Positions 14,661 through 14,819 of a stretch of 14,819 nucleotides of DNA are shown here, one piece after another. The stretch comes from Escherichia coli (lineage in GTDB: Bacteria; Pseudomonadota; Gammaproteobacteria; Enterobacterales; Enterobacteriaceae): the NCBI RefSeq assembly GCF_003334355.1, contig NZ_QOWP01000051.1; one strand, written 5' to 3'. Numbering within the stretch: the first letter of the stretch is position 1; each line of letters begins with the position of its first letter. The notes under the pieces were generated by a model. The model was given only the letters and a program-made list of their open reading frames with translations. It was not told the origin of the DNA and did no database searches. The position numbers were made by a program, and so were the translations under genes.

Positions 14661-14819
14661 GGCGGGTGCCTGAAGCTTTCCGGTTTCAGGTTTACTCTGA
14701 GGTCTGGAAAGATGAAGCCCCAGGAGATATTTCTATCAACCCTGTACTGCACCCATTTTGTTGGACGATGAAATGGAATAGCCCCTAATATGTCAAAGCC
14801 AAAATACCCTTTTGAAAAG
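14661..14819 (+). other. Probable 5' leader of a hok-family type I toxin mRNA (hokE position), truncated by the window end; possible mok-like start at ATG 14790
   Basis: GGCGGGTGCCTGAAGCTTTCCGGTTTCAGG (14661-14690) resembles the 5' end of plasmid R1 hok mRNA as I recall it (GGCGCTTGAGGCTTTCTGCCTCATG), with the same small hairpin around a UUUC loop. AATAGCCCC (14777-14785) followed by CCCTAATATGTCAAAG resembles hok GATAGCCCC…CCCTATGTCTAG around the mok start. The toxin ORF itself would lie beyond the window. Confidence 0.4.

Follow-up and report, generated by a model that had tools for sequence, protein, structure and literature searches.

The stretch of Escherichia coli DNA analysed here (14,819 nucleotides, referred to as the window) terminates, with a probability of roughly 0.93, in the chromosomal hokE/sokE type I toxin-antitoxin locus, in the allele sokE::IS150. 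Its final 159 bases are bipartite: positions 14661-14742 (GGCGGGTGCCTGAAGC...TATCAACCC, plus strand) are the 5' end of the leader of the hokE mRNA, 82 nt long (+1 to +82), and positions 14743-14819 (TGTACTGCACCCATTTTGTTGGACG...ATGTCAAAGCCAAAATACCCTTTTGAAAAG, plus strand) are the first 77 nt of IS150, made up of the left inverted repeat (TGTACTGCACCC...), the leader of the element and the first 10 codons of insJ/orfA. An earlier reading of the window, made from the sequence only, had taken all of these ~160 bp for a hok leader; this is right for 14661-14742, but the last 77 bases belong to the insertion sequence.

Positions 14360-14742 are an exact substring of the ybdK-hokE region of K-12 W3110, the leader being 100% identical up to +82, and the order in K-12 is ybdK, sokE (607733-607792, minus strand), hokE (607836-607988), IS186B, and entD; because of this identity and this gene order, the locus is hokE/sokE, the assignment that the sequence-only reading had made from its place after ybdK. 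In the window, ybdK (13240-14358, minus strand) is followed by the ybdK-hokE intergenic region (14359-14660, plus strand), delimited by its position relative to ybdK and the leader start, which is presumed to carry a divergent ybdK promoter and a weak hokE promoter; a consensus scan of 14330-14819 returned no sigma-70 promoter or terminator, and the hokE promoter was not located. The +1 of hokE is provisionally taken, by analogy, to be 14661, where the sequence opens with GGCGGG, the same start that the earlier reading had proposed; all leader numbering used here counts from this base. That the window is K-12 itself was considered, since the leader is identical, and rejected, since over its full length the window finds no 100% match among the complete genomes (best match 99.9%).

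The structure of the leader is best followed in strain 504239 (L006), an IS-free reference whose hokE locus lacks both of the insertion sequences discussed below and matches the empty site at 100%. At 14661-14671 (plus strand) the leader has its 5' end-pairing (tac) element, followed by hairpin I (14676-14711, plus strand, loop UUUAC at 14691-14695; +16 to +51 in L006). Hairpin II, which in L006 spans +56 to +89 (GCCCCAGG-AGAUAUUUCUAUCAAC-CCUGGGGC), is present in the window with its 5' arm, its loop, and the first two pairs of its 3' arm (14716-14742, plus strand); the small hairpin with a UUUC loop noticed earlier is indeed there, as the tip of this longer stem (GAUA-UUUC-UAUC, 14726-14737). 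On the opposite strand hairpin II forms the terminator stem of SokE, and 14708-14742 (minus strand) are, from the K-12 annotation, the 3'-terminal 35 nt of sokE, i.e. the 3' half of its stem-loop and the UUCAUCUUU tail, so that more than the regulatory 5' part of the locus, to which the sequence-only reading had confined the visible portion, falls within the window. The 82-nt fragment has a minimum free energy of -25.5 kcal/mol with z = -1.04 against shuffles; because this is indistinguishable from the shuffles, folding energy was dropped as evidence, and the assignment of these bases to the leader rests on homology instead.

When 14360-14819 were compared by megablast with 5426 complete E. 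coli genomes, many 100% matches came back, beneath which the RefSeq annotation reads 'IS3-like element IS150 family transposase'. The reference for what lies beyond the window is strain 300709 (L001), which is identical over 14360-14819 (window coordinate = L001 + 10359) and shows the gene order ybdK, leader stump, IS150 transposase, hokE, IS4-like IS421/IS186 transposase, and entD. Here IS150 occupies 4384-5826 (1443 bp, TGTACTG...CAGTACA) and agrees with the annotated K-12 IS150 at 1443/1443 positions; its transposase (WP_085947770.1) is annotated with a 'programmed frameshift' (orfA/orfB, -1) and matches the IS3 family in NCBIfam. The element is flanked on both sides by CCC (4381-4383 and 5827-5829), where the empty site of K-12 and L006 has a single CCC; the left copy of this 3-bp target-site duplication, which also flanks both ends of IS150 in strain AH21B066 (L011), is at 14740-14742 in the window. 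IS150 follows leader +82 and points the same way as hokE; its insertion site is two base pairs inside the hairpin II 3' arm and therefore within sokE. Past the element, the hokE leader resumes in L001 (TGGGGCTGCCACTCC...).

The minus strand at 14574-14791, antisense to the hok leader, is annotated by RefSeq/PGAP as a 'hypothetical protein'. Most genomes inspected (L001, L004, L006, L008, and L009) have it in frameshifted form, GE3 (WP_009008364.1) and AH21B066 (WP_071883003.1) uninterrupted; probably the leader has simply been miscalled as an ORF.

Two of the landmarks by which the earlier reading had extended the leader to the end of the window are real as sequences but are part of IS150, because everything from 14743 onward is: the 'AUAGCCCC box' is present as ATAGCCCC at 14778-14785, and the 'mok-like ATG' at 14790 is the start codon of insJ, opening MSKPKYPFEK, the N-terminus of the IS150 orfA product. 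That the whole 159 nt might nevertheless form one continuous hok leader, in which mok would start at 14790 and beyond which the Hok ORF, the Sok promoter, and fbi would all follow within ~400 bp, draws its main support from the Rfam scan, in which, at the gathering threshold, RF01794 ('sok') gives the single match in the whole window (14664-14819, plus strand; E 1.9e-12, its 63.7 bits exceeding the gathering score of 59) and aligns over the full model (1-157); in addition, GGAAUAGCCCCUAA of IS150 loosely resembles the RF01794 consensus GGUAGCCUCUUA. When the match is taken apart, however, the signal proves confined to the leader: a search of 14500-14742 retains a match at 14664-14742 with 46.2 bits (E 1.4e-9), which covers model positions 1-83 and is truncated 3', whereas the left end of IS150 searched by itself (L001 4384-4700) matches no Rfam family at E<=10. 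As the leader alone is significant and IS150 alone is blank, the 'full-length' alignment is forced across the IS junction, and the uninterrupted K-12 leader reaches 84.4 bits. Together with the exact match between 14743-14819 and IS150's left end with the start of insJ, the CCC duplication, and the true continuation of the leader on the far side of the element in L001, this refutes an uninterrupted leader, to which we leave practically no probability. The covariance-model search that had been proposed as decisive for a hok/sok locus thus comes out in its favor, with the 46.2 bits of the leader alone; since the match is on the plus strand and K-12 sokE on the minus strand, the family recognises the hok mRNA leader here, not the antisense RNA.

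Full-model RF01794 alignments over a hok/IS150 junction were seen in the window (14664-14819), in a hokB locus (L002 2460-2612), and in a plasmid hok locus (L003 2441-2604), and exceed the gathering score in two of these three cases. For annotation, the lesson is that a covariance-model match above its gathering score can cross an IS junction and mask the disruption, such that an automated pipeline would report an intact element at a split hok locus; a contig stopping 77 nt into an insertion sequence likewise makes a split locus seem to continue.

Both ends of the window are of this kind: positions 1-77 are exactly 77 nt of the right end of IS1 (...CATCATACACTAAATCAGTAAGTTGGCAGCATTACC), and 14743-14819 are exactly 77 nt of IS150. 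This suggests that the window is one entire contig from a short-read assembly with a k-mer of 77, ended on both sides by repeats, which would explain why it stops inside the locus. The same pattern, typical of repeat breaks in de Bruijn graphs, could be read as an assembly artefact, the contig merely ending in a repeat k-mer and the leader not being joined to IS150 at all. A break induced by a repeat still implies true adjacency to a copy of that repeat, however, and the identical junction occurs in 381 complete genomes, the matching right junction with its CCC exists, and a junction of this description is published (PMC11551753); we hold an artefact to be highly improbable.

For the junction counts, at least 80% query coverage was required across the 5426 complete genomes: the left junction (260 nt, anchored in the unique ybdK-hokE spacer) was found in 381, the right junction in 501, and the reconstructed empty site in 4955. 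As right junctions outnumber left ones, some genomes must carry rearranged or duplicated versions of the locus. More than one insertion event is indicated by the divergent allele of AH21B066, in which IS150 (L011 2685-4127) shares its insertion nucleotide, its CCC, and its orientation with L001, while the flanks differ by SNPs to either side of the junction and a second hokE copy follows in tandem.

Beyond 14742, the source genome would be expected to continue with a complete IS150, then CCC-TGGGGCTGCC and the remainder of hokE, and its assembly to hold a matching contig in which the last 77 nt of IS150 (…AACTTTTTGGGGTCAGTACA) lead into CCCTGGGGCTGCCACTCC / CCCTGGGGCTGCC. As the window stops 77 nt into IS150, the resemblance of the far side to other genomes is one that we infer, and it is conceivable that the left junction is real and that, in the source genome, an IS150-mediated deletion or inversion has spared no more than the 82-nt leader stump. 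The window does not reach past the element, the counts of left and right junctions differ (381 vs 501), IS150 in K-12 hokA has no target duplication and lacks leader sequence beside it, and large IS-associated deletions starting from hokE have been recorded in laboratory evolution (PMC4557228). Against this, both of the left-junction genomes inspected (L001 and L011) have the right junction with CCC and hokE, so that a simple insertion is preferred and a bare stump seems quite unlikely, if less so than an artefact of assembly.

What a simple insertion does to the locus is seen by comparison with the undisrupted allele. In L006 the hokE ORF runs from the ATG at +151 to a stop codon ending at +303, and is followed by a GGGG-N6-CCCC hairpin (+311 to +328); in the minimum free energy fold, +1-11 pair with +356-366 (AGGCACCUGCU), after which comes another stem-loop. 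This predicted pairing is the tac/fbi pairing of the 5' and 3' ends typical of hok mRNAs. In K-12, sokE (NC_000913 607733-607792, minus strand) corresponds to +48 to +107 of the hokE mRNA, and SokE is composed of 5'-GUUCGGGUUUGGAGUGGCA, the complement of hairpin II, and then UUCAUCUUU. A candidate SokE promoter (TTGCCT, 17 nt, TACCAT, 7 nt) was identified by eye on the minus strand just upstream of the SokE 5' end; a strict promoter scan did not return it. In the intact locus, the hokE promoter gives an mRNA of ~400 nt, whose 5' end (GGCGGGUGCCU) pairs with the 3' fbi and holds the message translationally silent, while the 60-nt antisense SokE, from the opposite strand (leader +107 to +48), would block translation of the processed mRNA. 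A separate, out-of-frame mok is not evident in the IS-free allele and K-12 carries no mokE annotation; in L006 (1480-1782) the hokE frame itself is open from the 5' end of the mRNA, with in-frame ATGs at +52 (window 14712) and +114, and an extended product of 83 aa in this frame is formally possible.

In the allele of the window these parts are displaced. The ybdK side keeps the presumed hokE promoter region, the 82-nt leader with tac, and the 3' 35 nt of sokE; the SokE promoter with 28 nt from the SokE 5' end, the remaining leader, and hokE lie on the far side of IS150. The antisense gene is thus present as a disrupted allele, split by IS150 after +82, and the hokE promoter, tac, and the first 82 nt are parted from the remaining leader and hokE by 1.44 kb. 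The toxin gene in L001, outside the window, is hokE at 5898-6050 (Pfam PF01848, HOK_GEF, 1-42/42, E 9.2e-8; the NCBIfam Hok models match HokE below their cut-offs), 1596 nt downstream of the leader start. A second element follows it: IS186 (L001 6069-7413; IS186B of K-12, 608007-609351) lies within the GGGG-N6-CCCC hairpin located 8-25 nt past the hokE stop (in the IS-free allele, GCGGGGAGCAATCCCCGC), a sequence that fits the known target preference of IS186. This insertion parts hokE from fbi and the terminator region; fbi persists at 7452-7462, and it is because of IS186 that it lies ~3150 nt downstream of the leader start in L001. The sequence-only reading had placed the toxin ORF and the Sok promoter just beyond the window, and had expected the Hok ORF and the 3' element complementary to the 5' end within ~400 bp. 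The complementary element does exist, paired with the 5' end in the fold of the IS-free allele (+1-11/+356-366), but in L001 it is ~3150 nt away, and ORF and promoter are found only beyond a 1443-bp IS150; the ~400-bp expectation fails because of the IS insertions, not because a hok locus is absent, and the remark in the same reading on frequent IS disruption of chromosomal hok loci describes what has happened here.

In some genomes, ybdK and the next gene enclose two hokE loci in tandem: GE3 (L007 1631-2286), O157:H7 ECP19-198 (L009 1628-2283), and AH21B066 (L011 4199-4853). The gene after the tandem is entD in the first two and a gene for an SDR-family oxidoreductase in the third.

From this arrangement we infer that the toxin gene is uncoupled, transcriptionally and structurally, from its control elements, and hokE/sokE carrying IS150 would be inactive as an addiction (toxin-antitoxin) module. 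The hokE promoter would now read into IS150 insJ, and the SokE promoter antisense into the right end of IS150. Inside that right end lies a terminator-like hairpin (L001 5783-5749, minus strand, antisense to the transposase), a perfect stem of 15 bp followed by a T-run (TTTAATTT), which could stop transcription running in from the right, that of the displaced SokE promoter among it. A 120-nt SokE'-IS150 chimeric RNA is predicted to fold at -42.1 kcal/mol (z = -3.55), and a stable chimera of ~110 nt is on this modelling conceivable.

The position of the insertion recurs elsewhere. In five hok paralogs IS150 is found within ~3 nt of the same boundary between loop and 3' arm of the Sok terminator hairpin, in most in the same orientation as hok: in hokE (L001 and L011) with the duplication CCC and the same orientation, in hokB of strain 98200 (L002 2536-3978) with AAC and the same orientation, in the plasmid hok of pNDM33-1 (L003 2528-3970) with ACC and the same orientation, and in K-12 hokA (L010 1634-3076) without duplication and in the opposite orientation. 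In hokC, de novo IS150 insertions at 16,972 arose in several independent laboratory lineages (PMC5419217); in REL606 (L014) this coordinate maps to the bracketed C of ATCAAC[C]CGAGG, and a second hokC site from the same study, 16,989, falls at the mirror position 5' of the loop. Laboratory-evolution insertions of IS150 are also listed there for hokE (582,237) and trg/mokB (1,272,468); of these sites only hokC could be mapped on REL606, the other two coordinates landing in cusA and chaB, because they refer to REL4536. These observations point to a near site-specific hotspot for IS150 in hok loci. That hok/sok loci are hotspots for the insertion of mobile elements has been noted (bioRxiv 10.1101/527788; PMC5419217); a statement of the nucleotide-level regularity of IS150 in them was not found in the literature covered and may exist in papers beyond it, and PMC7881107 does not mention hok. 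The hotspot makes a tidy example of recurrent, near-nucleotide-precise insertion of one IS in several hok paralogs. As a mechanism, a resemblance of the hok target to the inverted repeats of IS150 (TCCAAC-N4/5-TGGGG vs TCAAC-CC-TGGGG in hokE) was considered and rejected, being weak in hokB, hokC, and the plasmid hok. For the LTEE, Schneider and colleagues reportedly described hokB/sokB::IS150 in 2000.

A more speculative proposal, which we regard as unlikely, is that IS150 recognises, almost to the nucleotide in hokA, hokB, hokC, hokE, and the plasmid hok, the point where the loop of the Sok terminator hairpin meets the 3' arm (ATCAAC^C, then a G-rich stem), rather than its insertion there being merely tolerated, and that it rewires the constitutive Sok promoter to a chimeric RNA of ~110 nt. 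Such an RNA would consist of the 5' recognition tail of SokE joined to antisense IS150 and be ended by the right-end hairpin of the element; it could still neutralise hokE transcripts, would be antisense to the transposase mRNA at the 3' end, and may lie behind the unexplained RecA dependence of strains with sokE::IS150.

The hokE/sokE locus, its disruption by IS186 in K-12, and sokE::IS150 are all already published; the result therefore has little discovery value and is of worth mainly for annotation. In PMC11551753, sokE::IS150 is described in XL1-Blue and in more than 400 natural isolates, a sokE+ revertant is reported, as is an effect on RecA-dependent viability that is left unexplained there, and Pedersen and Gerdes 1999 is cited for five chromosomal hok loci and for sokA::IS150. 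By that description the allele matches the one found here, IS150 lying in sokE between ybdK and hokE, and 381 of 5426 genomes fits '>400 isolates'; the comparison is one of descriptions and not base for base with XL1-Blue.

One of the closest known systems is hokE/sokE of K-12 MG1655 (b4415/b4835), which has the same chromosomal position and a leader 100% identical to +82; L001 further shares with K-12 the same HokE (WP_000956455.1) and the same IS186 after the hokE stop. The difference is that in MG1655 and W3110 the leader is uninterrupted and sokE intact, whereas here IS150 splits both. The K-12 locus is said to have been described by Pedersen and Gerdes in 1999. K-12 hokA/sokA::IS150 shows the insertion in the homologous leader hairpin and leaves a sok pseudogene remnant of 35 nt, the same length as here; it differs in that the orientation is opposite, the target duplication is missing, and the leader is partly lost on the hokA side. 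The element itself is in every respect an ordinary IS150 of the IS3 family, sharing the TG...CA ends, the length of 1443 bp, the 3-bp duplication, and the frameshifted orfA/orfB without any difference, of which the window holds 77 nt only. With hok/sok of plasmid R1, the type I toxin-antitoxin prototype, the locus shares the tac/fbi pairing, the leader of two hairpins, an antisense RNA of ~60 nt that has one terminator hairpin and whose 5' tail is single-stranded, and a HOK_GEF toxin of 50 aa; unlike the R1 system, it is chromosomal and disrupted by two insertion sequences, IS150 at the end of the window and IS186, known from L001.
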